NCBI GenBank assembly: GCA_964653025.1 | Contig: CAZZBZ010000006.1 | Coordinates: forward strand, 6,292-70,291 | Reading direction: 5' to 3' | DNA: 64,000 nucleotides | DNA from: an uncultured Verrucomicrobiota bacterium | Lineage (GTDB): Bacteria; Verrucomicrobiota; Verrucomicrobiia; JABWAM01 | Part shown: piece by piece, positions 2,266 to 63,838 of the stretch | Numbering within the stretch: position 1 is the stretch's first letter | Layout of the letters: every line of letters begins with the position of its first letter | Program-made: the position numbers and the translations under genes | Notes under the pieces: generated by a model | Told to the model about the DNA's origin: nothing | Databases searched by the model: none | Seen by the model: only the letters and a program-made list of their open reading frames with translations

Positions 2266-2796
2266 CTAACCCTTGCGGTCGAAGAAGGGGCTCTTGCCCG
2301 TAACGCTGAGCGGGATACCGAGGGCTTGGACGACCTCCGTCGGGAAGAGGCCGAGATCGATCGCGGCCTTCCCGATCGAGTACATGAGGCGGTTGTCGAG
2401 GTGGTGGTGCGCCGCAACGGACGCGGCGGAAGCGGCCGCGATCCCGAGGTCTATCGAGTTGAAGGCGCACACGCCGCAGGCCTGCTCAAGCGCCTCGCAA
2501 GTGGGATGGCCGCAGAAACCGCAGTTGAGTCCCGAAGTTTTTGTAACGACGCCCAGCACAAGGATCGCGGGACTGGCGGCGAGGTTTCCCGCGTCGCGCT
2601 CAAGCCCGGGGCGGTTCTCACGCCGAGCGATCTCCCGCATGCGCGCAACAAGGCGATCACGAGAAGCATCGTCCTCGATCACGCGAACGCGGAGGTTGTC
2701 GATCCCGCGTGTCTTGGGCGCCGTGCGGGCCGCGGCGGCCATCAGACGGACCACGGCCCGGGCGGCATCTTGCTCGTAGGAAAGGGAGGCTTGCAT
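2266..2796 (-). CDS. DUF2148-type Cys-rich (ferredoxin-like) protein. The start could alternatively be at 2910.
   Basis: The ORF is 2266..2910. It contains the conserved block LNCGFCGHPTCEAL...GVCAFNSIDLGIAA and the tail IPLSVTGKSPFFDRK, both typical of the small DUF2148 family. The internal Met (MQASL...) gives a family-typical length of about 176 aa. Confidence 0.5.
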   Translation of the reverse strand: MQASLSYEQDAARAVVRLMAAAARTAPKTRGIDNLRVRVIEDDASRDRLVARMREIARRENRPGLERDAGNLAASPAILVLGVVTKTSGLNCGFCGHPTCEALEQACGVCAFNSIDLGIAAASAASVAAHHHLDNRLMYSIGKAAIDLGLFPTEVVQALGIPLSVTGKSPFFDRKG

Positions 2797-3108
2797 GGTG
2801 AAATGCTGCAGCCGGCTTTCCGTGCGGGCAAGGGGAAAACGGCCGTCGTCCCATTTGCTAGTCTGCTGTCCCTGAAGTGCCTGCCAATATTTCTTTTGAT
2901 GGAGGGCCACGCTTCGTCGTGGCCATCGGCCATCACAGAGGGCACGACGAAGCGTGCCCCTCCATCATTCAGAGCAAACTTCTCGAAATGTGCGAGATCC
3001 ATAGTAGCAAGCATTTCGTGGACACCACACTAGCAAGTTGACGTCAAATCGTGAAGTCCACCGGATACTTGATTCCTGGAGGGTGACGAGAGTATGTAAA
3101 TTCCCCGT

Positions 3109-4176
3109 ATGAAACCCTGTGCGCGACGCCACGTCAGGAACTGGGCGGTTTTTGCCGTCCTCGGGGCGGCCCTTCGCGCCTTCGCGGCGGAAGATCCGCT
3201 CGCGAGTTTGCGCGCCTTCTCGAGTTTCACCTCCGTGGACATTTCTCGCCTTGCGAAAGGTGAGGTTCTCACGGATCGAGGGGACGGCATGGATTTTGTG
3301 CGAGGGATCAGTGGGGAAGCCTGCTACGTCGTGCGCAAGGAGCCTGCCGCAGTTGCCCGTTTTATTATTTCCTCCGATCCCTCGAAGGGTGCCCCGGACA
3401 GCGTCTACTACCATAAGAAATTCAGCGGGGTCGTCCCGGACTCGGTTTTCGTGGAGATGAAGCTCGACGATTCAAAGTTCGGCCAGCGTCGCGTGGTCGG
3501 GAAGACCCTCGAAGTCGGGGGGGGGAAGGCGGATTTCTTCATGAGCAAGGCGGAGATGGTGTGCTTTGAGGAAGTGGCCAAGCAGGGACGGGCCGCGGGC
3601 CTGAAGCCCGCGGAGATCGCGGCGCACTGCTGGTCCTCCCTTTTCGTCGGGCGCGCGACCGCGTTCCTCAAATCGGGCCTCGACAACCTCGATCCCTATG
3701 AGACCGGGCGCGCCCCCGTGAAGCCCGCAGACGAGATGCGGCAACTCCTCGACGAGGTTCCCGAGGTGCGTGAGCATTTTCGCGGGCTCCTCAGCCAGAC
3801 CGGTCTCCTCGGTTCCCCCAACGCCGCGCCACGCCTCGCTCCCGAGTGTTATGCCGAACTGATGAACGCCCAGGTTTCGGCCAGCTTCGATCTCGGCGCC
3901 ATTTTTGTGAAGGAACTTCCGGGCGGTGAGGTTCAGGTCCTCGATTGCCAGTACTACTCCAGCGCGGCGTACTATGTGTCGCTGACGCTCTTCCATCTCT
4001 GGCCCATCCAGGTGGACGGGGCCCCCGCGACGCTCGCGTGGCGAGGGGACCTTCTTTCCGCGCCGCTTCTGGAGGTTACGCACGGCACGGCCCGCATGGC
4101 ATGGGGCCTGGTGATGATGCGCGAGATCAAACAATCCATCCAGATCTTCCAGAAAGACATCCTGAAGGCGCCCTGA
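3109..4176 (+). CDS. Secreted hypothetical protein
   Basis: The ORF is 355 aa with protein-like composition. The N-terminal signal peptide is MKPCARRHVRNWAVFAVLGAALRAFAAEDP. It contains an in-frame G9 tract at 3517..3525. Confidence 0.55.
   Translation: MKPCARRHVRNWAVFAVLGAALRAFAAEDPLASLRAFSSFTSVDISRLAKGEVLTDRGDGMDFVRGISGEACYVVRKEPAAVARFIISSDPSKGAPDSVYYHKKFSGVVPDSVFVEMKLDDSKFGQRRVVGKTLEVGGGKADFFMSKAEMVCFEEVAKQGRAAGLKPAEIAAHCWSSLFVGRATAFLKSGLDNLDPYETGRAPVKPADEMRQLLDEVPEVREHFRGLLSQTGLLGSPNAAPRLAPECYAELMNAQVSASFDLGAIFVKELPGGEVQVLDCQYYSSAAYYVSLTLFHLWPIQVDGAPATLAWRGDLLSAPLLEVTHGTARMAWGLVMMREIKQSIQIFQKDILKAP
3517..3525. repeat. Homopolymeric G9 inside CDS 3109..4176 (encodes GGG)
   Basis: Nine consecutive G residues are read directly from the sequence. 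Confidence 0.9.
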
Positions 4177-4257: not shown

Positions 4258-5172
4258 ATGAAACCCTCCCTTCGTCCTCTCCTTCAGTTGGCCCTTTGTG
4301 CGGCCGTGGGTCTGGTCTTTGCCTCCCCCGCGACGGCGGCTTCAAAGAAGAAGAAGAAGGCCACCGAGGAGGTTTCCTGGGAGGTGTCCTCCGATGCTTC
4401 CTACGTGGCGGGGAGTCAGACGAAGGCCGGAGATGTGAAGTTCGGTCGATTCACCGAGGTGGCGAACTCTTTTCAAGCGGTCGCCTCCACCCACCTCACC
4501 GAGGGGGTCATCCTTCGCATGGGTGGTGCGTGGGATCGGTATTCGTTCGGCACCCCCGCCAATTCCCCGCTCCCCAACACGCTCCAGTCCGGATCGGCGG
4601 TGATGGGGGTGGACTTCCAGGTGGCCAGCGAGTGGCTGGTCCGCTTCGAGGTGCAGCCCGGCGTTTACAGCGATTTCGCGGACATCACGTTCGACGATGT
4701 CAATGTGCCGGCGACGTTCGGGGCCTCCTACCTCTACGACAAGGACCTCCAGATCGTCTTCGGTCTCAGCATCGACCCTCGGCGCGAGATCCCCGTCCTG
4801 CCGGGGGCGGGCATTCGTTGGCAGTTTGCGGACCGCTGGACTCTCAACGCGATCCTGCCGCGTCCACGCCTCGAATGGGCGATGAGTGAGACCCTCACCC
4901 TCACGACAGGCGCGACGCTCAAGGGGGGGTCTTACCGCCTTGCCGACAACTTCGGGGACACTCACAGCCGTCCCGGGATGAACGGGGTGACCGTGGATTT
5001 CTCCGAGGTCCGGGCCTGTCTTGGCGCCGCGTGGAAGCCGCATCCCGCGGTCGAGGTGACCGTCGAGGGCGGTTACATGGTGTGGCGTACCTTCGACGCA
5101 TGGGCCCGGAACGTGAGTTTTCGCGGGGACCCGGCCCCCTACGGGGGGATCTCGGTGACCGCCGGCTTCTGA
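4258..5172 (+). CDS. Putative outer-membrane beta-barrel protein
   Basis: The signal peptide is MKPSLRPLLQLALCAAVGLVFASPATA. The sequence has alternating beta-strand character and ends in a C-terminal Phe (..TAGF), typical of OMP barrels. It contains a (AAG)5 Lys run. The ORF track starts earlier, at 4207. Confidence 0.55.
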   Translation: MKPSLRPLLQLALCAAVGLVFASPATAASKKKKKATEEVSWEVSSDASYVAGSQTKAGDVKFGRFTEVANSFQAVASTHLTEGVILRMGGAWDRYSFGTPANSPLPNTLQSGSAVMGVDFQVASEWLVRFEVQPGVYSDFADITFDDVNVPATFGASYLYDKDLQIVFGLSIDPRREIPVLPGAGIRWQFADRWTLNAILPRPRLEWAMSETLTLTTGATLKGGSYRLADNFGDTHSRPGMNGVTVDFSEVRACLGAAWKPHPAVEVTVEGGYMVWRTFDAWARNVSFRGDPAPYGGISVTAGF

Positions 5173-8062: not shown

Positions 8063-8147
8063 TGGTGGGCGAGACAGGACTTGAACCTGTACCCCTTTCG
8101 GGACTGGAACCTAAATCCAGCGCGTCTGCCAGTTTCGCCACTCGCCC
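8063..8147 (-). tRNA. tRNA-Leu, anticodon UAG
   Basis: I folded it by hand. The acceptor stem is GGGCGAG/CUCGCCC with discriminator A and CCA. The anticodon stem-loop is CUGGA-UUUAGGU-UCCAG. There is a long variable arm, as expected for a class II Leu tRNA. The T-loop is GGUUCAAGUCC. Length is 85 nt. Confidence 0.85.
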
Positions 8148-9794: not shown

Positions 9795-10229
9795 TCAGAC
9801 CTCCGCGATGTCCACCATGCGCTTCTCGAGCGCCGATTTCACCCCGGCCAAGCAGATGCGCGTGGCCCGCAAGGCGCTTTCGACCGGGCTGACCGGCTCC
9901 TTGCGAAGGCCCCGGATCTCCTCGACGAACGCGCCCAGCATCCGGGCGTACCCCTTGTCCGGTTCCGCGGTGAAGAGCTTCCAGATGTCCCCGCTGCGTT
10001 CCGCTTCCCGACATGCCTCGCGCTTCTTGGCGAGCCAGACGGAGAGCCCTCCCTTGCTTCCGACGTTCGGGTGACGATCCTTGAGCATGGGGTAGATCTT
10101 GCGCGCAGGGGCGTCCGCGATCCCTGTGGTTCGCACCTCGATCTCCGTCCAGCGCTGGCGTTTCCATGCCTTGATGGCCTCTTCGCGCCACGCGCACGGC
10201 GGGTCCGCAGCGCCTCTTTGTGGGCCCAC
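9795..10229 (-). CDS. Hypothetical protein (low confidence)
   Basis: The ORF is 144 aa with more protein-like composition (K/E/W) than the overlapping Arg/Gly-rich frame. It is tandem with, and immediately upstream of, the enolase-family gene. I recognise no domain. Confidence 0.35.
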   Translation of the reverse strand: MGPQRGAADPPCAWREEAIKAWKRQRWTEIEVRTTGIADAPARKIYPMLKDRHPNVGSKGGLSVWLAKKREACREAERSGDIWKLFTAEPDKGYARMLGAFVEEIRGLRKEPVSPVESALRATRICLAGVKSALEKRMVDIAEV

Positions 10230-33596: not shown

Positions 33597-34265
33597 TCAA
33601 CGGCCTGCTTTCGAGGGTTTCGCTTTGCTGGCGGAGGGAGCGGGCTTCGGCGGCGGTACGGTTGGTGCCTCGAAGGGGTCTGCCGCCTGGACCTGCACGA
33701 GCACGGAGGCCGCGGCTTTCAATAGGGCATCCTCCCCGCGGAGGGTGTGATGCGTCCGCTTCTCCCTCCGAGCAATCGTCTGTACGCGAGCCGTTCCTCG
33801 ACTCTCGTCCACGTACCGGGCTGTCTCGATGCGTGTGGAGAACTCCCGTACCTCCAGCGAGGCCATGCTGCCGTAGCCGGAGAGCAGGCGATCGTGGAGG
33901 CTGCGAAGGTTCGTGGGGCCTTCCGGGCTTCGGACACAGTTCACGCTGGCGATGTCCACGTCGACCATCGAGAGGTAAAACCGCCCACGCAGGAGCGCCC
34001 AAGGGTCGTAGCGGACGGAAAGAGAACGAATTCCCAGAGCCATCGGGGTGCGGCAACTGTACGGGGAATTATTAATTGAGATGGCACAAGCATTGACGAG
34101 CGACGAGGAGAGGCGCAGATCCACCGACCCCACGGCACACGGGAGTCCGGTCACCCGTTCGAGTTCGCCCCGCAGGAGTCGTGCGCCAATCCAGTTACGC
34201 CCCAGTACCAGTCCGATGAGGACGAGCACCAACAGGAAAAAGATTCGAAACAGCCAGCGAAACAT
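33597..34265 (-). CDS. Hypothetical membrane-anchored protein (AsmA N-terminal-like)
   Basis: MFRWLFRIFFLLVLVLIGLVLG is an N-terminal TM helix (ATG 34265). The remainder is soluble with an Ala/Pro/Lys tail. Confidence 0.5.
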   Translation of the reverse strand: MFRWLFRIFFLLVLVLIGLVLGRNWIGARLLRGELERVTGLPCAVGSVDLRLSSSLVNACAISINNSPYSCRTPMALGIRSLSVRYDPWALLRGRFYLSMVDVDIASVNCVRSPEGPTNLRSLHDRLLSGYGSMASLEVREFSTRIETARYVDESRGTARVQTIARREKRTHHTLRGEDALLKAAASVLVQVQAADPFEAPTVPPPKPAPSASKAKPSKAGR

Positions 34266-34326
34266 GGGGATTCGGGAGTTGCGGGATGATTCGACGGAGA
34301 AAACGTGATGCCAAGCCAAATGTGGA

Positions 34327-34355: not shown

Positions 34356-34367
34356 CGCAACTACTCA

Positions 34368-34454
34368 GGTTCACGGTTCAGAGGTTCAACGGTTCACGGT
34401 CGGGAATCTCGTTAGAAAATGATCGGCAACCGTTGAACCGTGAACCGTTGAACC
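34368..34454. promoter_or_regulatory. Array of TTCA(A)CGG repeats arranged as an extended inverted repeat
   Basis: The left arm is GGTTCACGGTTCAGAGGTTCAACGGTTCACGG (34368..34399). After a 30-nt spacer, the right arm is CCGTTGAACCGTGAACCGTTGAACC (34430..34454), the reverse complement of the same unit. It lies about 65 nt upstream of the SDR/CoA-transferase/thiolase operon. A related copy is at 40449..40517. Confidence 0.6.
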
Positions 34455-34518: not shown

Positions 34519-35280
34519 ATGTCTATTTCGATTGATCTCACCGGAAAGACAGTGCTCGTCACCGGCGCCTCGCAGGGCATCGGGGCGCAGATCGCGCGCA
34601 CCTTCCACCGCGCCGGCGCCGCGGTGGTCCTGAACCACCCCGGTCTTGAGGGCCCGCGCGCCGATGCCACCCGCCTCGCCGAGGAACTCAACGCCGCGCG
34701 TCCCGGAAGCGCCGAAGAGGCTGCCGCCGACATTTCGGATGCAGGGGCCGTTCGCGCGATGATGGAATCCCTCCGCGCCCGGCGGGGAGGGATCGACTTC
34801 CTCGTCAACAACGCCGCGATCATTCGCGACCGGACCATCGCGAAGATGTCCCTTGAGGATTGGGGTGCCGTGGTCGGGGTAAACCTTTCCGGGGTTTTCC
34901 ACTGCTGCAAGTATGGGCTGGAGATCATGCGCGACGGCGGCGCCATCGTGAGCCTTGGGAGCATCGCCGCCCTCCAGGGGTTCTACGGACAGGCCAACTA
35001 CGCCGCCGCCAAGGCCGGCGTGCAGGCGATGATGCGCGTCCTCAGTCGCGAGTGCGCCCGTCGGGGCATTCGCGTGAATGCCATTGCCCCCGGGGTCGTC
35101 GAAACAGCCATGGCCGCCACCATCCCTGCGGAGGTGCGCGCCGAGATGCTCAAGAACGTCCCGCTGCGCCGCTTCGGCGACCCGTCGGAAATCGCGAATG
35201 TCGCCCTGTTCCTCTGCTCTCCGCTGGCGTCCTACGTCACGGGGCAGACGATCGAGGTCAATGGAGGTTGGCGCGGGTGA
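34519..35280 (+). CDS. SDR-family oxidoreductase (3-oxoacyl/3-hydroxyacyl reductase-like)
   Basis: The glycine motif TGASQGIG is present. The NNAAI block is present. The catalytic YxxxK is in YAAAK. Confidence 0.85.
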
Positions 35281-36803
35281 GAGGCGCGGCCCGGATCGTT
35301 TCCGCGGCGGAGGCGGTGGCGATGATCCCCGCCGGTGCCACCGTGGCGGTCAGCGGTTTTGTGGGCTCGGGGCACCCCGAACTGCTCACGGCGGCGCTGG
35401 AGAAGCGTTTTCTCGGGAGCGGCACGCCCCACGACCTCACGCTCGTTTACGCCGCGGGGCAGGGGGATCGCGACCGACGCGGCCTCAACCACCTCGCACA
35501 CCCCGGGCTCCTCAAGCGCGTGGTCGGTGGGCACTGGAACCTCGCCCCCCGTCTCGGGAAACTCGCCATGGAGAACCGGATCGAGGCCTACAACCTTCCG
35601 CAGGGAGTCCTCTGTGCCCTCTTCCGCGAAATCGCCGCGAAACGCCCAGGCGTGATCACGCGCGTGGGCCTCCACACCCTCGTGGATCCGAAGAACGGCG
35701 GCGGGCGCCTCAACGAAAGTACCGTCGAGCATCTCGTTGAGCGGATCACCCTCGGCGGGCAGGAATGGCTCTGGTATCGCGCCTTCCCGATCCATGTAGC
35801 GCTCATCCGCGCCAGTACCGCCGACCGCCGCGGAAACCTCGCGCTCGATCGCGAGGCGATTGTCGGCGAGGTGCTCCCCCTCGCCCAGGCTGCGAGGAAT
35901 TGCGGCGGGATCGTCATCGCCCAGGTCGAGCGCCTCGTGGATCGCATCCCCGACCCGAAGTCCGTGCGCGTTCCCGGGATTCTCGTGGATGATCTCGTCC
36001 TCTCCGAAGGGGAAGGGCACGACCAGACCTTCGCGGAGCCCTTCAACGAGGCCTACGTCACCGCCGGGCCTCCTCCCGCCGCGCCGCCGCCGCTCCCCTT
36101 CTCCGAGCGAAAGATCATCGGGCGGCGCACCCTTGCGGAAATTGCGAAGGGCGACCTCGTGAACCTCGGTATCGGCCTTCCGGAGGCGGTCGCCGCCGTC
36201 GCTGCCGAGGAAGGAAGGCTCGAGGATTTCACACTGACCGTCGAGAGCGGGCCGATCGGGGGGATTCCTGCCGGTGGATTGAGCTTCGGTTGCAGCGCCT
36301 GGACGGAAGCGGTGGTGGACCAGCCCGCGCAGTTCGATTTCTACGACGGTGGCGGACTGGATTTCGCGGCGCTCGGCGCCATCGAGGTGGACGCTGAGGG
36401 CAGCGTCAACGTGACCAGCTTTGCGGGGCGGTTTGCCGGCGTGGGTGGATTCATCAACATCAGCCAGAATGCGAAGCGGCTCGTCTTCTGCTTCAGCTTT
36501 CGCGCGGGCGACCTCGAGGTGGACGCCGAGGGGGGGTGCCTTCGGATCGTGAGGGAAGGCCAGTATCCCAAGTGGGTGAAGCGTGTTGCCCAGGTCGGTT
36601 TTCATGGCCCCTCCGCCCTCGCGCGCGGCCAGCAGGTCCTCTACGTCACCGAGCGGGCCGTGTTCGAGCTCACCCCGAAGGGCGTGGAGTTGCGCGAGGT
36701 CGCGCCGGGCGTTGACCTGAAGGCCTCGGTGCTCGATCTGATGGCCTTCGCCCCCGTGGTGGGTTCCCCCAAACTGATGCCTGCCTCCTGTTTTCATAAG
36801 TGA
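35277..36803 (+). CDS. Acyl-CoA:acetate/3-ketoacid CoA-transferase (family I, YdiF-like)
   Basis: The GTG start overlaps the SDR stop (GTGA). The N-terminus is [23 protein letters not shown], which compares with VLSAQEAVNYIPDEATLCVLG in YdiF. The length is 508 aa. The large minus-strand ORF 35232..37082 here is spurious. Confidence 0.8.
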
Positions 36804-55238: not shown

Positions 55239-56963
55239 TTGACCCCCGGTTCGCCCCAGCGCGGGAGAATCGTGGGGGTGTGGTTTCCCCTCGCCATCCT
55301 CGTGGCGGTGTGGATGGCCGCCGCGTGGTGGGCGCGGCGCGAGTGCCTGCCGTACGACGTCAACAACACCGACGTCGGAACTTATCTTTTCCAGGCCGAG
55401 ACCTTCGCTGCCGGGCAACTCGCACGCCCGACGCCCGAGCCGCGTGAGTTTTTCTCGCAGTGGCAGGCAATCGTCCGGGATTGTTCCTTTGCCTACTACC
55501 CGCCGCTGCCGGCGGTCGCCATGGCATTGCCGATTGCGTTCGGCGGGTCGCCCTTCTGGGTTCCTTGGCTCTCGTCGGGTTTGGTGCTGGTCCTGACCTT
55601 CATCTGGATCAGGCGCCTTGCAGGGAAACGCGCCGCGTGGTTCGGGACGCTTGTTCTTGCGGTCTCGCCCTTCTTCGTCGCCAACGGCCTTTCAGTCCTC
55701 TCGCATGCGTTCACCCTGCTCCTGACCGTCGCGTTTCTCGTGGCCGTGGAACGCTGGCGGGCGATGGGATCTCGCGGGTGGGCGGCGGCAGCGGGAACGC
55801 TTCTCGCGGCGGTCTTCGCCTCGCGCCCCGTGAACGCCCTCGCGCTCGGGATCGCGTGGGTGCCATGGGCCGTCGCATCGACAATTGCCAACTGCCAATT
55901 GCCAACTGAAGAACGGAAACGGCAAGGCTTTATGGGGGTCGCGGGTTTTGCGGTTGGGTTTGCGGCGCTGTTCGTGCCGCTGGCGCTCTACTACCACGAG
56001 ATGGCAGGGCGGTGGACGCTCAGCCTGTTCACGGACTACTGGCCGAGGAACCGGTTCGGCTTTGGGCAAGGACTGGGGCGTGGGGAGACGGGACACTACT
56101 TCCAGACTTTTACGGATCACGATTTTTTTGGATTTCTTGGGAATCTGCGGTACAGCGCGGAAGGACTGGCGACCTGGTGGACGGGAAACGCATGGCTTTC
56201 GGCGGCGCTGCTCGGACTTGTGGGAATCCTCCTCGTTCTCCGTATCAAGAATCGGATTTCATCAATTGGCAGTCGGCAGTTGGCAGTTGGAAATGTTGGG
56301 TGGCCTCTGCTGGTGTGGCCTGCGGCGCATGTCTTCCTCTACGCGGGCTACTTCACCCCGAGCACTCCGACGACGGGGCCGCGCTACCTCGCCGAGCTCA
56401 TGCCGGCGCTTGCGCTCGCCACGGGGTGGGGCATGGCTCGCCTGGCGACCGGGGGTGTGGCAAGGCGGCGTCTCGCGCTCCTGCTTTTCTCGGTTGCGAT
56501 GGTCGTGTCGGCTCAGGCCGTGGTGAGGTTCCTTCGGCTCAATCAACTCGGTATCCCGGCCCGACGGGCGGTGGAGCATGGTGTTGTCGGGGAAGCGCGG
56601 GCGCCGGCGGTGGTCTTCCTGCGTTCCTTCTGGATCGGCCATCCGCTCCCGATCTTTCGGAATCTTCCCAGCCTCTCGGGTCCGGTGATCTTCGCATGCG
56701 ACCGAGGGGCGGAAGATCGACGGTTGGTGGAACGGCACCCCGACCGCAACGCCTATGTCCTCGCGCTGTTCCCCGAAGGGCGCGGGGTGCGGACGGAGAT
56801 GGTGCCTGTTTATCGGGCGAACGACCGCCGGTGGCTCCGTGCGCCTGAGTCGGTGGAAGCTCCCTTCTTTGTCGGGAGCCGCTTCACTCCTTCGCTGCGG
56901 CTGGAGGGGGAGGCGGCGAGGAAGCTCTTTTACCCGCAGCCGGACGAGATCGAGGGACAGTGA
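55239..56963 (+). CDS. Polytopic membrane protein, GT-C glycosyltransferase-like
   Basis: It has about 12 TM helices. The N-terminal periplasmic-loop motif NNTDVGTYLFQAETFAAGQL has the GT-C D-x-G-x-Y pattern. It carries two inverted 4x heptamer arrays in frame. Confidence 0.6.
   Translation: MTPGSPQRGRIVGVWFPLAILVAVWMAAAWWARRECLPYDVNNTDVGTYLFQAETFAAGQLARPTPEPREFFSQWQAIVRDCSFAYYPPLPAVAMALPIAFGGSPFWVPWLSSGLVLVLTFIWIRRLAGKRAAWFGTLVLAVSPFFVANGLSVLSHAFTLLLTVAFLVAVERWRAMGSRGWAAAAGTLLAAVFASRPVNALALGIAWVPWAVASTIANCQLPTEERKRQGFMGVAGFAVGFAALFVPLALYYHEMAGRWTLSLFTDYWPRNRFGFGQGLGRGETGHYFQTFTDHDFFGFLGNLRYSAEGLATWWTGNAWLSAALLGLVGILLVLRIKNRISSIGSRQLAVGNVGWPLLVWPAAHVFLYAGYFTPSTPTTGPRYLAELMPALALATGWGMARLATGGVARRRLALLLFSVAMVVSAQAVVRFLRLNQLGIPARRAVEHGVVGEARAPAVVFLRSFWIGHPLPIFRNLPSLSGPVIFACDRGAEDRRLVERHPDRNAYVLALFPEGRGVRTEMVPVYRANDRRWLRAPESVEAPFFVGSRFTPSLRLEGEAARKLFYPQPDEIEGQ
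55883..55908. repeat. Tandem heptamer array (AAYTGCC)x3.7 inside CDS 55239..56963
   Basis: The sequence is aattgcc aactgcc aattgcc aactg. Confidence 0.8.
56264..56291. repeat. Inverted copy of the heptamer array (caattgg cagtcgg cagttgg cagttgg)
   Basis: The reverse complement is ccaactg ccaactg ccgactg ccaattg, which is the same AAYTGCC unit family as 55883..55908. The two arrays form an imperfect 26-bp inverted repeat (about 4 mismatches) separated by 355 bp. Both are in frame in the CDS. Confidence 0.8.
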
Positions 56964-57916: not shown

Positions 57917-58684
57917 TCAAGGGAGGGTGGTCTGCCAGTCGGCGTTCTTGTCGTACCAGTAGGTCATCTGGTTGGTTTCGTAGTGGTTGAAGGCGGCGAC
58001 GTGGCCGTCGGCGAAGAGGAAGTTGGCCGCGCCGTTGTGGGGAAGCGGGTAGGTGGAGCCGTTATGGGAGAAGCCGGTGCGATCAGTGACCTCGTTGGTG
58101 GGATCGAAGTCCTGGTCGTTGCGGTCTGTGGAGAGATCTTCGCTCATGAGGATGAACGCGGGTGGGTTGCTGATGCGGCGGGCGTCGAGGACGAATGCGC
58201 CGGTCTTCGATCCGCCGCCGACTCCGGGATCACCCCCGCCTTCCTTGTAGGGCTGGATGAGGTTGAGGTAGTAGTCCACTTGGACCACGGGGGTGACCCA
58301 CTTCGGGAGGCCACGGTCTTGCAGGATGCCGGTATCCTTGAAGTAAGGGTAGAGGAGCCGGGTCCATGACTGCGTGGATCCGGAGGAGTTCCACGCGGGG
58401 GAAGGGAGTCCGCTCTGGGCGACGAGTTGGTTTTCGTTCTCATCCCAGTACATCCGGACCGCGTAGCCGAGCTGCTTGAGATTATTGGCGCACGACATGG
58501 CCTGGGCGCGGTAGCGCGCCTTCGAGAGCGAGGGCATGAGCAGGCCCGCGAGGATGCCGAGGATGGCCACTACGACCAAAAGCTCGATGAGAGTGAAGGC
58601 GGTGAGCGGTGAGCGGTGAGCGGTGAGCAGGCTTGCTCCGTGTTGCGCGAGGAAACGGGGAGTTGGGCGAGACTCAAACATCAT
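57917..58684 (-). CDS. Prepilin-type N-terminal cleavage/methylation domain protein, H-X9-DG (DUF1559) family
   Basis: ...[28 protein letters not shown] is the pilin-like N-terminus, preceded by a 26-aa leader. The C-terminus [17 protein letters not shown] is an exact H-X9-DG motif. A 4x GGTGAGC heptamer array lies in the leader-coding region. The gene overlaps the upstream GT-C gene by 4 nt (ATGA). Confidence 0.8.
58601..58628. repeat. Perfect tandem heptamer (GGTGAGC)x4 in the 5' coding region of the pilin-like gene
   Basis: The sequence ggtgagcggtgagcggtgagcggtgagc is read directly. On the coding strand it encodes [11 protein letters not shown] in the leader peptide. The 7-nt unit is not a multiple of 3. 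Confidence 0.9.
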
Positions 58685-60867
58685 GGAGGGAGGATGTGGG
58701 GGGGCGGTGCGGGAGGCGAGGCTTGGGGGGAGCTTACCGCAGAAGGGGCGTTGGTGGAAATGATGGTTTGCGGGGGCGCGTTGCTGACCGTGACCGAGAG
58801 GACATTGCCCGACACGCGAACAACGATTCCCGATGGGATGATCGCGAGCGTGGCGACGTTCGATGAGATGACGGCCACCGGAAGGGAGACCGTGGCGGAG
58901 GGCGGGTTCGTCGCGGGGAGTGGCGGGGGGAGAGGGAGAACGGTCCTGCGGGTCGCCATGAGGCGACCCTGTTGCCCGTTCAGTTCGCCGAGTTCGCGTT
59001 CCATGGCCGTGATGCGGTCGCGGCTTTGCTGGGCACCGGGGTACTTCTGTTCGTGTTCCTCGCGGACGAGGTTGAGGCGGTAGCGGACCTGCTCGATGCG
59101 TTCCTGGATCTGTTCGAGCGTCAGCCCGCGGGAGGGAGCGGGGGTGGCAGTGCCGGGTTTTACGAAGGCGATTTCAGTGAGCGTCCAGACGGTGGAGCGA
59201 ATTTCGCCCTCGGGGCGGAAGGCGGGCTGCAGGCACTCCCCGACGGGAAGGAAGTCGAAGCGGGGGCCGAGGCGGGCCTTCCACGCGCGCGCGACCGCCT
59301 GGTTGCCGAACATCGCAACGCGTCGGCCAGCATCGAGGTGTTTGGCGATGAGGCTGCGCTGGATCTCGGCGAGTTCGGGTTCGCGCTTGCCCTCGAGCAT
59401 CTTCTTGATGGCGAGCGCCTTCTCGCGGTGAAAGGGATGGGGCTCGCCGTTTTCCAGCACCTTCGTCCAGCGCTGGATGGTGGCGCGGTCGAACATCCCC
59501 TGTCCATAAAGGGTGTGGTTACCCGCAAACTCGATGAACTGTAGAGACCCCTCGTCCGAGAGGATGACGGCGCTTTCGGGGAGTTTTCTACGGAGGAGGT
59601 CGGTGGCGTTGGCGGAGAAGGTGTTGCGTTCGAGCATGGGCATGAGGCGCTCGGTCGCGATGCCCTGGTTGACCCACGCGATGAAGAAGACGAGGAGCCC
59701 GGAGATGGCGACCCAGGCGGGGCGGAGGGGTTGTGCGTGGCAGAGCAATCCCATGCCGGCGATGATGAGCGGGGGGAAGATGCTCACGAAAAATCGGATA
59801 TAGGAGGGGCCCTCCCCGGCGGGAGCCCAGTAGTAGGCGGTGTAAAGGAGCAGCGTGGGCAGGATCCAGAGCGCGAGGAAGAGCCCCCGGCGGAACTCGT
59901 GGACGAGGTACCAGGCCATGCCAGCCAGCCCGAGCGGGAAGAGCAGGTAAAGCCCGGGAAAGTCCATCCGCGCCAGCATCAGCGGCCAGTTCTTCAAGAA
60001 CCATTTCTGGCTGAAACCCGTGGCCTCGCCGCACAGCGCATACCCTGTCTTGAGCGGTCCTCCGAAGGCGACGGTGTGTTGCCAGAGCAGCGGGGCGAAG
60101 GAGAGGAGGGCGGCGACCAGGATCAGCACGAGGTCTCGTACAAAGGGAAACAACACCCTCGATGGCGGGTTCTCGCCGCGGTCCCGCCAGAGGCGGATGA
60201 GGCGCGTGGCGACGATCGCGGCCGCCGGTAACGCGAGGAGGGCTTCCGTATAACGGGCACTGACAGCCCAGGCCATGGCCGCCGCGCCGAGCATCCCGCG
60301 CCACCCACCCCCCTTCTCGCCCCATTGCCAGAAAAAATACATCCCCCAGAGCGAGAAGAACGTGGAGGAGGGGTGACTCAGCGCCGAGACGCTGAAATAG
60401 GCATGCATCGGGTTGGTGGCCAGGAGGATTGCGGCGAAGGCGCCGGCGAGGTCGCCCGCGATCGCGCGGCCAAGGAGAAAGATGCCGATGACTGCGAGGG
60501 CGGAGAGAAGTGGGTTCACCCAGAAAGCCGCCGAGGGGCCGCCGAGACGCCATGCGACCGCGCAAAGGGATGGATAGCCGATCGGATACTTCGCGGCGTA
60601 GAGGTTGCGTTTCGCGTCCACGAGCACCCAGTTGCCGCTGATAAACTCATACGGGTCGGAGGACTGCTTCCGAACGTCCCCGGTCGTTGCGAGGCGTTTT
60701 GCGGTGACGAGGTAACCGTTCTCGTCGGTTCCCCCGAAGGAGGGTACGTAGTAGGCGCCCACCATCGCCACGAAAAGGGCGGCGGCTGCGATAGCGGCGA
60801 GAGCCGAGGAGAGTCTGCGGACCATCCCTCGAATGTGAGGCCGGACGGAGGGACGCATCAACCCCAA
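58681..60867 (-). CDS. GT-C family membrane glycosyltransferase (ArnT/PMT-like) with a C-terminal soluble/coiled-coil extension
   Basis: The N-terminal motif [21 protein letters not shown] has the DE.GY signature of GT39/GT83. There are about 11 TM helices. The C-terminal region of roughly 250 aa has a coiled-coil and a Pro/Ser/Thr-rich tail. Confidence 0.75.
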
Positions 60868-60938
60868 ACCCGGAGGGTTCGGTTGCCATGCGCCCCTGTC
60901 TCGGGAATGTCGCCTCCGTCCTTGTCCATCCCGTAGCG

Positions 60939-61811
60939 ATGGGCTACTCTAAAAACTACCCGATGGCCAAACCGCGCGTATCGCAGGTCGAGCATGAGCG
61001 TCTGCTCCAGACGGTGCAGATGTTCGAGGAGGTTGCCCGCACTCAGCCGGGCGATATCCAGTCACTCGAAATTCTCAAGGAGGCCTACCTCAACCTTGGC
61101 CGCGACGACGAGTCGGTGACCACTTCCAAGAAGATCGCTCGCGCCTACCTTTCCGCCGGCCAACTCTCCTCCGCCATTCTCGAATACGAGGGCGTCATCC
61201 AGCGCTATCCGGACGACGCCGAGTGCCGGGCCGCCCTCCATGAGCTCGAGCAGAGCATGGCCGCCGTGGGGACCGCCGGCACCGACCAATCCACCGCCGG
61301 TGCCGCAGAAGCCGCAGAGCAGGTTCTCGCGGAGGCCGAGCAGTTCGAGGACGGTAACGAGGCCCTCCTCCGCTTCTTCCAGGAAAACGGCCTTGTCAGC
61401 GAGAAGGACGGCGTCACCGTTCTCGCCGCCATCAGTGCCGCCGCCAACGAGGCCCCGCCAGACAGGCCTGCCCCCTCGCTTCTCGCCATGCTCGCTGAAC
61501 GCGGCATCGCCTCCATGGAAAAAAGTCTTGGCCTCATCGTTGAGAAAACGCGCCTCCCCTTCCTGCCGCTGGCCATCTGTGAGGCCGATAGCGGGCGCGC
61601 CAATCTTCTCGAACGCGGGTTCTGCCTCCGCCACCTCGTGCTTCCCTTCGACCAGGTCAGCCGCACCCTCCTCGTGGCCACCGTCAATCCCTTCGATGCC
61701 CGTGCCAAGCACCATGTTGAGGCCGCTGCGGGGACGCGTGTCCAGTGGTACGTCACCTCGCCCGAGGACATGACCTCCCAGCTCAAGAACGTCTTCCGTA
61801 TCGTCGGCTAG
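60939..61811 (+). CDS. Protein with a GspE/PilB N-terminal (T2SSE_N) domain. The start could be 60888 or 60963.
   Basis: The C-terminal roughly 100 aa (LPFLPLAICEADSGRANLLERGFCLRHLVLPFDQVSRTLLVATVNPFDARAKHHVEAAAGTRVQWYVTSPEDM) match the GspE N-terminal fold. The N-terminal half is TPR-like and helical. Confidence 0.6.
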   Translation: MGYSKNYPMAKPRVSQVEHERLLQTVQMFEEVARTQPGDIQSLEILKEAYLNLGRDDESVTTSKKIARAYLSAGQLSSAILEYEGVIQRYPDDAECRAALHELEQSMAAVGTAGTDQSTAGAAEAAEQVLAEAEQFEDGNEALLRFFQENGLVSEKDGVTVLAAISAAANEAPPDRPAPSLLAMLAERGIASMEKSLGLIVEKTRLPFLPLAICEADSGRANLLERGFCLRHLVLPFDQVSRTLLVATVNPFDARAKHHVEAAAGTRVQWYVTSPEDMTSQLKNVFRIVG

Positions 61812-61821
61812 CACCCCTTCC

Positions 61822-63522
61822 ATGAAGCCCTTTGGAGAGAGAATTGCAGACGCCCTCATCGAGGACGGTGTGCTCCAGCCCACCCAACTTGAGGAGGCCA
61901 TGTCCCAGCATAAGACTCAGGGAGGTCGCCTCCTCAAGATCCTCCTCGACCACCAGTATGTGACCGAGCAGGACATGATGGTCAGCATGGGGCGCACCCT
62001 CGGTGCCGCCCCCATCAACCTCGCGCGCGTCAAGATTCCTCCCGAGATTGCCGAGCTCGTCCCGCGCGACCTCGCCCGCAATCACCAACTCCTCCCCGTC
62101 GCCCGCCTCGGCAACCTTCTCTACGTGGCGATGGCCGACCCCCTCAACGTCCTCGCCCTCGATGACGTGAAGCAGATCACCCACCTCGAAGTGGTTCCCC
62201 TCATTGCCACCGAGCGCATGGTCGCCGACGCGATCTCCAACCTCGACGCCCAGGGCAGCCAGCAGATCGAAGAAATTATCCGCGACGAGAACATCGATAT
62301 CGAGATCTCCGAGGACAAGCCGATGGAGGAGGTGGACGTCACCGCCAACGACCCCGGCGCCGCCCCCGTCATCCGCATCGCGAACCTCATGTTCGCCTCC
62401 TGCGTCAAGGACAAGGCGAGCGATATCCACCTCGAGTGCTACGAGAAGATTCTCAAACTTCGCTACCGCGTGGACGGCGTGCTCTTCGATTACCCCGCGC
62501 CCCCGAAGTCCATGCAGGGCGCCATCATCTCACGCCTCAAAATCATGGCGCATCTCGATATCTCCGAGAGGCGTCTTCCGCAGGACGGACGGATCCGCAT
62601 CAAGATGGCGGGACGCGACATCGATTTTCGCATGTCCTTTCTCCCCACCAAGTACGGGGAGAAAGTGGTGGGCCGAATCCTCGATAAGTCTGCTCTCGGC
62701 GGCACGGTCGCCGACCTTGGTCTCGACCCCCAGTCGCTCAAAATCTTCATGGGGGCCCTCGACGAGCCACAGGGGATGATCCTCGTCACCGGCCCCACCG
62801 GTTCCGGGAAGACGCGCACCCTTTACACCGCGCTCGCCGAGATCAACAAGCCCCAGTACAACATCGTCACCGTCGAGGACCCGATCGAGTACGAGCTTGC
62901 CGGGGTGAACCAGGTTCAGGTGAAGCCCGACATCGGATTCACCTTTGCCGCGGCCCTGCGCTCCATTCTCCGCCAGGATCCCGATATCGTGATGATCGGG
63001 GAAATGCGCGACCAGGAGACCGCCCACATCGGCGTGGAGGCCGCCCTTACCGGCCACCAGGTGCTCAGTACCCTCCACACCAACGATGCGGCCGGCGCGA
63101 TCACCCGCCTCACCGACATGGATATCGAGCCGTTTCTCACGGCATCGAGCCTTTCCCTCACCTGCGCCCAGCGCCTCATGCGCCGCATCTGCACCAACTG
63201 CAAGGAACCCCAAAAAGTTCCCGAAAAGCTTTGGGAGCAGCTCCACCTCGACCCCAAGAAGGAAGCCGAGTTCACCTACTACAAGGGGCGCGGCTGCGAC
63301 CGCTGCAAGAACAAGGGCTACGCCGGCCGATGCGCCATCCTCGAGATGATCCCCGCCACCGAGCCGATTCGGAAGCTCATCATCGAGCGCGCCACCGCCT
63401 CCGAGATCAAGCAGACCGCCCTCCAGGAGGGGATGCTGACCCTGCGCATGACCGGCCTCCTCAAGGCTCGAGAGGGAATCTCCACGCTCGAGGAGGTCCT
63501 CGGCGTCACCACCACCGACTGA
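61822..63522 (+). CDS. pilB: Type IV pilus assembly / type II secretion ATPase (PilB/GspE family)
   Basis: The Walker A motif is GPTGSGKT. The Asp box and His box are present. The C-terminal tetracysteine motif is CTNC...CDRCKNKGYAGR. Two N-terminal T2SSE_N domains are present. Confidence 0.9.
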   Translation: MKPFGERIADALIEDGVLQPTQLEEAMSQHKTQGGRLLKILLDHQYVTEQDMMVSMGRTLGAAPINLARVKIPPEIAELVPRDLARNHQLLPVARLGNLLYVAMADPLNVLALDDVKQITHLEVVPLIATERMVADAISNLDAQGSQQIEEIIRDENIDIEISEDKPMEEVDVTANDPGAAPVIRIANLMFASCVKDKASDIHLECYEKILKLRYRVDGVLFDYPAPPKSMQGAIISRLKIMAHLDISERRLPQDGRIRIKMAGRDIDFRMSFLPTKYGEKVVGRILDKSALGGTVADLGLDPQSLKIFMGALDEPQGMILVTGPTGSGKTRTLYTALAEINKPQYNIVTVEDPIEYELAGVNQVQVKPDIGFTFAAALRSILRQDPDIVMIGEMRDQETAHIGVEAALTGHQVLSTLHTNDAAGAITRLTDMDIEPFLTASSLSLTCAQRLMRRICTNCKEPQKVPEKLWEQLHLDPKKEAEFTYYKGRGCDRCKNKGYAGRCAILEMIPATEPIRKLIIERATASEIKQTALQEGMLTLRMTGLLKAREGISTLEEVLGVTTTD

Positions 63523-63586
63523 GCCCGCCCTCGCTCGTGGGTGATCGCCCGTGGCTCTGGTTTTCGGTCGGCCGCTGCGACGAGAA

Positions 63587-63752
63587 GCCACGGATGAAAC
63601 ACGGATGGACACGGATCACCAATGCGCCGATTCCGCCACACGGAATCGGTGCGACTTCCACCGGAGGATGGGAATAGCTCTGCGGCTGAGACATGTCAGG
63701 TCCGTGTAGCGGACCTGACATTATCTTCTGTAATCCGTGTTTCATCGGTGGC
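63587..63752. other. Structured intergenic region: a 20-bp long-range inverted repeat enclosing two internal hairpins
   Basis: The outer inverted repeat is GCCACGGATGAAACACGGAT (63587..63606) paired with ATCCGTGTTTCATCGGTGGC (63733..63752), 19 of 20 bp. The first internal hairpin is GCGCCGATTCCG-ccacac-GGAATCGGTGCG (about 63623..63652). The second internal hairpin is ATGTCAGGTCCG-tgtag-CGGACCTGACAT (63693..63721, a perfect 12-bp stem) followed by TATCTTCTGT. The motif CACGGAT occurs three times in direct orientation (63589..63620). Confidence 0.5.
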
Positions 63753-63838
63753 TCTCTCTGCCCCTCGACCATGGCTCTCTTCTTTGCCTCCACTTTCGGG
63801 GTTGAGACACGCCCCGTTTCTGGCAGACTCGCCCCCCG

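Follow-up and report, generated by a model that had tools for sequence, protein, structure and literature searches.

Within a 64,000-nucleotide stretch of DNA from an uncultured Verrucomicrobiota bacterium (contig CAZZBZ010000006.1, positions 6,292 to 70,291 of the forward strand; hereafter the window), a gene for a membrane glycosyltransferase of the GT-C fold carries two arrays of tandem heptamers that are near reverse complements of each other and lie on either side of a conserved stretch of coding sequence. We consider it probable that these arrays are heptanucleotide microsatellites, produced by replication slippage together with template switching and tolerated in permissive inter-helix loops of the encoded protein. 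The locus belongs to the phenomenon of heptameric simple sequence repeats (SSRs). An excess of 7-nt tandem repeats in bacteria has been noted before, is poorly explained and has been described mostly for intergenic DNA. The present locus and its homologs form a natural time series in which heptamer arrays with different units have settled again and again in the two loops of one protein family, with the units turning over in concert and the lengths changing by whole units, and in which one array appears to have served, across about 350 nt, as an inverted template for the other. The features concerned are the following, with coordinates counted from the first letter of the window.

55278..56963, + strand: gene for a GT-C fold membrane glycosyltransferase (GT39/ArnT-like), defined by its open reading frame (ORF), homologs, AlphaFold (AF2) model and Foldseek matches
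55882..55908, + strand: heptamer array 1 (site 1), CAATTGC CAACTGC CAATTGC CAACTG, i.e. (CAATTGC/CAACTGC)x2
56263..56290, + strand: heptamer array 2 (site 2), CAATTGG CAGTCGG CAGTTGG CAGTTGG, near reverse complement of array 1
55909..56262, + strand: spacer between the arrays, 354 nt, coding for helix 223-256, for the block best conserved across the family (LFTDYWPRNRFGFGQGLGRGETGHYFQT...) and for helices 296-342
55882..55913, no strand assigned: left arm of the inverted repeat, pairing with 56258-56289; its inner 15 nt (TTGCCAAYTGAAGAA) are an older core common to the homologous locus L001
56258..56289, no strand assigned: right arm of the inverted repeat (TTCATCAATTGGCAGTCGGCAGTTGGCAGTTG)

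Both arrays had been pointed out in a first-pass annotation made from the letters alone. Its account of their sequence and its limits for array 1 (55883-55908, or 55882 with the leading c) stand, but array 2 starts at 56263 and not at 56264, ends at 56290, and leaves a spacer of 354 rather than 355 nt. The inverted arrangement (arms of 32 nt, 84% complementary) and the in-frame reading of both arrays, as STIANCQLPTEERKRQ for array 1 and RISSIGSRQLAVGNVGW for array 2, were borne out. Tandem Repeats Finder (TRF) describes array 1 as period 7 with 3.9 copies or, alternatively, as a 14-mer with 1.9 copies at 100%, and array 2 (56266-56290) as period 7 with 3.6 copies. Three arrays of period 7 with at least 3.5 copies are present in the window, against 0.05 expected from 100 dinucleotide shuffles, no one of which held more than a single such array, and this rules out pure coincidence; for periods 8 to 12 the window contains none that reaches 3.5 copies. 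When two mismatches at most are allowed, the pattern CAAYTGCCAAYTGCC gives five overlapping matches in the window, all of them at sites 1 and 2, where 0.28 would be expected. It had been proposed that the arrays might be dispersed repeats, an idea that was rejected: the CAAYTGCC motif is confined to the two sites within the 64 kb, and the units differ from array to array with no single dispersed unit. Three properties of the heptanucleotide SSR class are found here, namely head-to-tail 7-nt units in at least three copies (all three TRF arrays of the window), an excess over composition that is specific to period 7, and unit turnover or concerted evolution with whole-unit length change among relatives.

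The host ORF is open from 55239 (574 codons), and homologs in the databases begin at the GTG at 55278, which gives a protein of 561 aa. Its 29 homologs all come from uncultured Verrucomicrobia, some being named GT39 or ArnT-like and some carrying PF13231; the protein's own Pfam matches are sub-threshold (only DUF7846, 22 bits). The AF2 model, built on a 19-sequence alignment and with a mean predicted local distance difference test (pLDDT) score of 82.6, has the multi-helix membrane fold of the ArnT/STT3/PMT type. Its best PDB matches in Foldseek are ArnT (5f15/5ezm; E 1.5e-7, TM 0.52-0.55), AglB, PglB, ALG9/12 and PMT, and because of these the protein is assigned to the GT-C fold, in agreement with the description of the gene as GT-C-like in the annotation. 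Mapped onto the model, array 1 codes for residues ~215-223 (TIANCQLPT), comprising the end of helix 197-216, the loop 217-222 and the start of helix 223-256, and array 2 codes for residues ~342-351 in the loop 343-353, where pLDDT is below 50. These two sites are the two main spots of large insertions and deletions in the 19-sequence family alignment, and neither is conserved. Between them lies the family's most conserved block, LFTDYWPRNRFGFGxGLGRGEPGHYFQT, which every homolog has whether it carries arrays or not and which includes the invariant alignment columns Y267, W268, P269, G274, F275, G276, G280, R281, G282, E283, F288, Q289 and T290. The 354-bp spacer is ancestral coding sequence and no insert.

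A third variable loop, rich in G, lies at about window residues 170-183 and has a GGS duplication in the homolog P0037. One further homolog is split at this loop into two ORFs of 168 aa and 387 aa (P0042 and P0027, on an NCBI contig of 3939 nt); possible causes of the break are a frameshift, decay to a pseudogene and an error in sequencing.

The history of the two arrays was read from the DNA of homologs at about 21 unique loci (designated L001, L002 and so on; a metagenome scan yielded 7 loci and a genome scan 8). At the position of array 1, L004 (68% aa identity) has a perfect (CCGATTG)x4 equal in length to the window's (CCAAYTG)x4, and the one A/G difference between the two is repeated in all four units, which indicates concerted evolution of an old array 1. 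L001 and L002 (87% and 79% over aligned columns) retain the right two units of array 1 as GCCAATTGCCAATTGAAGAACGG, and upstream of these units both loci carry 40-80 extra nt that include small GC-rich hairpins (CCCCG...CGGGGCAGGTY) flanked by GCCAAC; L002 additionally has (CCAATSG)x4 at this site. L003 (87%) has wholly different arrays at site 1, (GAGAAGG)x4 and, after 58 nt, (TTCTCAT)x4, which make an imperfect inverted pair. Site 2 has a short form in all four of these nearest relatives, reading CAATTGGCAAYAGGTTCTGG in L001 and L003, and the window is longer there by 21 nt, that is by three units or seven codons (GSRQLAV). By parsimony, the longer form is a recent in-frame gain in the window's lineage. 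On these comparisons array 1 is old and array 2 young. A probable seed is retained in L001 as a 15-nt, 93% inverted repeat between TTGCCAATTGAAGAA at site 1 and TTCATCAATTGGCAA at site 2. CAACTG, the variant in array 1 that is specific to the window, has a reverse-complementary counterpart, CAGTTG, in array 2. Of the 21 bases added at site 2, 19 agree with the reverse complement of array 1.

The hairpins of L001 (2225-2262) and L002 (5708-5745) lie inside the site-1 heptamer array (CCCCGCGCAACGCGGGGCAGGTC, CCCCGATTGCGGAATCGGGGCAGGTT). We take them to resemble the very small hairpin repeats of cyanobacterial genomes.

Heptamer arrays built from at least nine different units are found at these same two loops in about half of some 20 homologs. 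Site 2 is occupied by (TTCCGCG)x4 in L009, by (ATTCYYA)x4 in L016 and L019, by AATCACT AATCACC CATCACC CATCACT in L026 and by RAATCCA units in L024, and L017 has heptamer arrays at both sites; for P0009 and P0010 the arrays were foreseen from odd peptides alone and then borne out in the DNA. In the 253 kb of 21 non-redundant loci, 29 arrays of period 7 have three copies or more, against 0-1 for each period from 8 to 12. Twelve of these 29 fall in the 31.8 kb of GT-C genes, every one at site 1 or site 2, and the other 17 in 221 kb of flanking DNA. The annotation had reasoned that homologs with the same residues at both sites and no nucleotide repeats would speak for coincidence; in fact the residues are not kept and many homologs carry nucleotide repeats of their own there.

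Other observations on these loci may be recorded here. Upstream of a GT-C homolog, L023 (2385-2461) and L024 (1-80) contain (AGAAYCC)x5 followed by (AAAATCC)x5; if L023 and L024 represent one gene, the RAATCCA family of units would occur both upstream of that gene and at its site 2, in direct orientation. A neighbouring PMT_2/TPR gene in L026 contains adjacent (GAAGTCG)x3 and (TCCTCAG)x4.5 arrays (4507-4567). Several contigs (L014, L022, L023 and L024) end near site 2, and these ends were considered as a sign of heterogeneity, but branching of the assembly graph at the edge of a conserved block common to co-occurring relatives is the likelier cause.

The 32-nt arms formed by sites 1 and 2 in the window are 344 nt apart, reach 88% complementarity in a 25-nt register and 93% in a 14-nt register, and constitute the longest inverted repeat of the window at spacings up to 600 nt. 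The pairing of the two loops was scored at each locus by aligning site 1 to the reverse complement of site 2 and comparing the result with random windows of the same locus, as follows.

Window: inverted score 18.5, with 0/1476 null windows as good
L017: inverted score 17, with 0/1401 null windows as good
L005: inverted score 14, with 0/1433 null windows as good
L002: inverted score 10.5, with 0/1309 null windows as good
L001: inverted score 11.5, with 12/1240 null windows as good
L016: inverted score 9, with 71/1420 null windows as good

About 10 of the 16 loci tested have no repeat between the loops and an inverted score at background, and scores for the direct orientation were at background at every tested locus. 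The case of L017 (49% protein identity) is instructive. Its site 1 reads GAATCAG GAACCAG AAACCAG AAACTCG GAACTTG GAACCTG and its site 2 GTTTCAG GTTTCTG GTTTCGG GTTCTAG ... GTTCCAA GTTCTGG GTTCAAT, so that GAAMCWG at site 1 and GTTTCNG at site 2 are reverse complements of each other, built on a unit unrelated to that of the window, with arms of 27-30 nt at 77-85%. The insert at site 2 of L017 also holds a 13-nt direct copy of sequence that lies just downstream of site 1. Together, the inverted arrays and the direct copy suggest that copying of arrays tends to be local, in one orientation or the other, and to end in whichever permissive sites are nearest. In L005 the two loops are linked by a gapped inverted repeat of 18 nt.

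Two further sets of heptamers occur in the window away from the GT-C gene.

58599..58628, - strand: third array of heptamers, which reads (GGTGAGC)x4.3 on the + strand and, in the coding sense, (GCTCACC)x4
34367..34454 (34367-34400 and 34428-34454), no strand assigned: inverted pair of GGTTCA(N) arrays, with a core of 18 nt that is 100% complementary

The third array, which the annotation had correctly listed as a GGTGAGC array, lies in a pseudopilin-like H-X9-DG gene (57917-58684, - strand), in the part coding for the variable leader peptide, immediately before the A|FTLIELL prepilin motif. None is present in the orthologous leaders of L001-L005, whose sequence there is unrelated. The GGTTCA(N) pair, with a spacer of ~27-36 nt, is intergenic between the divergent genes 33597-34319 (- strand) and 34860-36803 (+ strand), and it is a further example of the inverted-array architecture in this genome, with another unit and a short spacer.

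At the level of strains the two GT-C arrays are stable. They are base-for-base identical to those of the window both in L006, an independent Logan contig with one mismatch within the gene, and in L015, a contig of an NCBI metagenome-assembled genome (MAG) that is 99.6% identical over 12.4 kb with 50 differences, including single-nucleotide polymorphisms (SNPs) at 55865 and 55925. As these assemblies are independent, the arrays are no assembly artefacts. Neither unit-number polymorphism nor an inverted allele was seen in the three strain-level assemblies (window, L006 and L015), and among ~20 homologs no allele is frameshifted at an array, the sole split gene being broken elsewhere. An earlier suggestion that the arrays are copy-number-variable slippage sites that reset the reading frame is therefore sustained only as to slippage, which is a plausible origin: no variation in unit number is seen among the three strain-level assemblies, no array-frameshifted allele was found among ~20 homologs, and the tracts are short and impure. 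A compensating pair of +1 and -1 changes at the two sites would, moreover, put the conserved core between them out of frame.

The favoured course of events would be as follows. Replication slippage in a 7-nt register would make short arrays and homogenise their units, and in coding DNA such arrays would persist only where a change in length is tolerated, and then only if each step leaves the reading frame intact (3 units = 21 nt = 7 codons). The array of the first loop, array 1, is old and would be maintained by slippage, evolving in concert. A 15-nt inverted repeat between the loops, due to chance or older, would have pre-dated array 2, and in a template switch the nascent strand would have been copied for ~21 nt off the complementary strand of array 1, extending the arm in the second loop, possibly with slippage thereafter; only an in-frame product of 21 nt could have survived. 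The outcome would be a mutational by-product tolerated by the protein and no device, with a potential long-range mRNA stem of 26-32 bp and a weak substrate for rare inversion as side effects. What is shown is the anatomy and statistics of the arrays, their place in loops, the conservation of the spacer, the order of age, the recurrence in homologs and the stability among strains; we infer both the generating processes and the absence of a function, and we favour this course because of the specificity for period 7 in the window and in 253 kb of its relatives, and because the sites are permissive in every case, the first two arrays being in loops prone to insertion and deletion, the third in a variable pseudopilin leader and the fourth pair in intergenic DNA. 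It is favoured also because the units turn over in the manner of microsatellites (L004, L003, L009, L016, L026 and L024), because the age order of the arrays is joined by the signs of templating (the gain of 21 nt, the 15-nt core in L001 and the match at 19 of 21 bases), because local copying recurs in L017 and L005, and because the strain-level assemblies give no sign of switching.

Several observations weigh against this account. Heptamer arrays are ~5 times denser in the GT-C genes than in the flanks, which exceeds what simple tolerance obviously predicts, and the genes that bear them (glycosyltransferases and a pseudopilin) serve the cell envelope, as the genes at contingency loci typically do. 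At least three unrelated sequences (the type of the window, L001 and L002, that of L017 and that of L005) give inverted complementarity between the loops, and this could reflect selection for pairing and not mutation alone. Pairs of 12-mers at spacings of 60-600 nt in the window number 9 in inverted and 10 in direct orientation; with no inverted excess, a genome-wide bias from template switching is not evident. The distance of 344-354 nt is also long for documented template switching at quasipalindromes. Lastly, the end of the Logan contig L006 falls exactly on the final base of the fourth GGTGAGC unit (window 58628), which is what unit-number polymorphism at this third array would produce in a de Bruijn assembly. 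Density, the several independent origins of complementarity between the loops, spacer length, the lack of an inverted excess, the envelope genes and the end of L006 are points that pure neutrality leaves unexplained, and they keep an inverton, an RNA stem and phase variation alive as explanations.

One competing view would take the two loops as a conserved, fast-evolving long-range inverted-repeat system, acting either as a recombinase-independent intragenic inverton that turns a surface-glycan transferase ON and OFF or as a regulatory mRNA stem. The heptamer arrays would then supply material that can be renewed, and gene conversion or selection would preserve the complementarity of the arms. 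Such a system would explain the recurrence in at least three lineages, the ~5-fold density and the clustering in cell-envelope genes; nevertheless we regard it as unlikely. Were the pairing functional, whether in an inversion switch or in an RNA stem, it would represent a new kind of switch in environmental Verrucomicrobia.

The more specific form of an intragenic inverton, in which the arrays bound an invertible segment of 354 bp that is flipped by RecA or by a recombinase encoded elsewhere, so that truncation of the glycosyltransferase switches a surface glycan ON or OFF, is somewhat less likely again. It develops an earlier proposal that the arrays are crossover sites for inversion, of which the part that stands is the presence of inverted repeats, since the longest inverted repeat of the window does bound a coding segment, with arms of the length, identity and spacing given above, and does so in a cell-envelope gene. 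Inversion of 55909-56262 in silico brings a stop at codon 271, since the reverse strand has stops in the register used; this is a clean OFF state, so that inversion would be OFF-only, with no recoding. The recurrence of loop complementarity in L017, L005, L002 and L001 with different sequences is also what gene conversion between recombining arms would produce. Only one orientation has been seen in ~20 assemblies, however, three of them of this strain, where the inverted state would be recognised by the junctions GCCGTCGCATCGA + array + ATGAAATCCGATTCTTGATACGG and, as its partner, CGTTTCCGTTCTT... + array + AAATGTTGGGTGG. When the predicted OFF-state fusion protein was searched against 5.8 billion proteins only P0042 was returned, the N-terminal half of the homolog that is split at the G-rich loop, unrelated to the arrays; the sensitivity of this search is uncertain, as it failed to list the known ON proteins again. 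The 19 window ORFs scanned for a recombinase domain (at 33.6-34.3 kb and at 39-63.5 kb) have none; they include an ABC transporter, a type II secretion system (T2SS)-type ATPase, an MshEN protein, the pseudopilin, a second GT-C gene and housekeeping enzymes. The locus thus shows neither a recombinase among the neighbours checked nor a conserved recognition sequence: the arms are unrelated across the lineages of L017, L005 and the window, unlike recombinase sites, and in ~10 of the 16 homologs tested the loops share no repeat at all. Arms of 15-32 nt with 77-93% identity are poor substrates for RecA.

We give a comparably low probability to a functional long-range mRNA stem, in which the stretches coding for the two loops would pair around ~350 nt and modulate translation or the kinetics of membrane insertion, or make a site for RNase III. 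Folding of 55870-56305 places such a stem in both the minimum free energy (MFE) and the centroid structures, and complementarity that recurs with different sequences in several lineages resembles covariation. The z-score of the fold is only -2.07, however, with 3/100 shuffles folding as well. Duplex energies of site 1 against site 2 do not discriminate here, random GC-rich windows reaching values just as low. The mismatches in the arms are wobble-compatible in 2 of 5 cases on the sense strand and likewise in 2 of 5 on the antisense strand, so that there is no strand bias, and most homologs have no repeat. No Rfam family was found in the region, the sole match in the window being a tRNA at 8066-8147.

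A contingency locus, at which slipped-strand mispairing would alter the number of units and, 7 not being a multiple of 3, switch the gene on or off by frameshift, appears distinctly improbable. Heptanucleotide tracts can mediate phase variation in Haemophilus (PMC2651432), the hosts are here glycosyltransferases and a pseudopilin, and L006 stops at the last unit of the perfect GGTGAGC array. Yet L006 runs unbroken through both GT-C arrays, and these are identical in three strains that differ at nearby SNPs. The tracts are impure and of four units, array 1 being effectively a 14-mer in 1.9 copies and array 2 having only two identical units, whereas the known phase-variable heptamer tracts have 13-38 units (PMC2651432). 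The arrays are in mid-gene, and the long perfect tract and the frameshifted or length-variant alleles that mark a contingency locus are both lacking, no length variant being seen in three strains and no allele frameshifted at an array among ~20 homologs.

Pure coincidence, or the footprint or termini of a foldback element of the kind of a miniature inverted-repeat transposable element (MITE) in the gene, the latter raised by the annotation and suggested superficially by terminal inverted repeats ~400 bp apart, can be dismissed as extremely improbable, the foldback element being rejected on the ground that its interior would be the invariant core of all 19 aligned homologs, present also where there are no arrays, while no target-site duplication flanks the arms, the two arms differ in age and the motif occurs nowhere else in the window.

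Around the arrays lies a cluster of envelope and secretion genes, comprising the second GT-C-like gene (58681-60867, - strand; 728 aa, with weak STT3, PMT and PMT_2 matches), the pseudopilin gene, an MshEN/TPR protein and the T2SS-type ATPase (60888-63522). Repeats of other kinds were also encountered. The motif GCCACGGATGAAACACGGA, a dispersed conserved element, is found in several loci of distantly related Verrucomicrobiia MAGs (L005 at 16619, L016 at 8183, L017 at 9911 and, on the - strand, at 10009), the pair in L017 being inverted and straddling the start of the GT-C gene. Its copies in the window (63586-63606 and 63733-63753) are a 21-nt, 95% inverted pair 126 nt apart, with tandem CACGGATGRA x2.6. 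A hairpin of 28 nt, 93% complementary and with a 15-nt loop (2897-2924 and 2940-2967), lies between the divergent ORFs 2266-2910 (- strand) and 3109-4176 (+ strand).

Slippage and template switching in permissive loops, which we continue to favour, place this locus between several known systems, and it offers a system for asking how arrays are born and spread locally, how loops of membrane proteins gain residues, and whether bacterial template switching can span hundreds of bases. Genomes of bacteria, especially large ones of high GC content, contain an excess of heptameric SSRs, and it has been hypothesised that the 7-nt register of slippage is linked to the footprint of the polymerase (PMC4692102). 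The GGGAATC arrays of Xanthomonas favour four units, are conserved in position while their length and sequence vary among relatives, and in 70-75 cases per genome are paired convergently, two arrays together (PMC4692102). These arrays and the GGGGAYT arrays of Nostoc (Rehm et al., 2015, PMC4692102; Mrazek et al., 2007, as cited there) resemble those described here in their tandem 7-nt units, the excess at period 7, the preference for about four units, the frequent inverted pairing and the keeping of position while sequence and length vary, and all these genomes are large, high in GC and those of non-pathogens. They differ in having one G-rich family of units per genome that is capable of forming G-quadruplexes, is mostly intergenic and is under-represented in ORFs. 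The present arrays have no G3-4 tract of the GGGNATC type in their units (CAATTGC, CAACTGC and CAGTTGG have none); they are built from many unrelated units without G-tracts (CCAAYTG, GGTGAGC and GGTTCAN, and in relatives GAGAAGG, TTCCGCG, ATTCCCA, GAAACCA and others), and they stand in frame inside genes with inverted partners ~350 nt apart across conserved coding sequence.

The STRR heptamers of cyanobacteria and the TAACTGA repeats of Beggiatoaceae, Cyanobacteria and Bacteroidetes (MacGregor, 2015, PMC4679880) are likewise tandem heptamers, in 2-6 copies, which within ORFs are found at peripheral or poorly conserved parts of proteins and whose origin is unexplained (PMC4679880). TAACTGA is, in contrast, a single dispersed unit that occurs mostly just upstream of start codons and has been proposed as a binding site for a regulator (PMC4679880), whereas the arrays described here have no dominant unit and no association with start codons. 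The likeness to intragenic invertons and to phase-variable SSR loci consists in inverted repeats around an intragenic segment and in non-triplet tracts within cell-envelope genes; compared with these systems the tracts are short and impure, and a single orientation, a single tract length and no recombinase among the neighbours checked were found.

When the template is switched between imperfect inverted repeats, their arms are known to become more alike and longer (PMC8604942, PMC13100816, PMC8794818), and short spacers are favoured (PMC8604942). The mutagenesis of quasipalindromes by this route (PMC8604942, PMC13100816, PMC8794818 and PMC7954356) is alike in that a short imperfect inverted repeat is extended or homogenised off the complementary arm, and in that in coding DNA it yields multi-residue changes, de novo stems and parallel recurrence. 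The documented spacers are mostly of a few to tens of nt, whereas the distance here is ~350 nt and what would have been copied is a tandem array in its own right. Relative to the cases described so far, what is new is the in-frame position within protein loops, the many unrelated units that are not G-rich, the recurrence at orthologous sites with turnover of the unit, and the pairing of inverted arrays across ~350 nt of conserved coding sequence.

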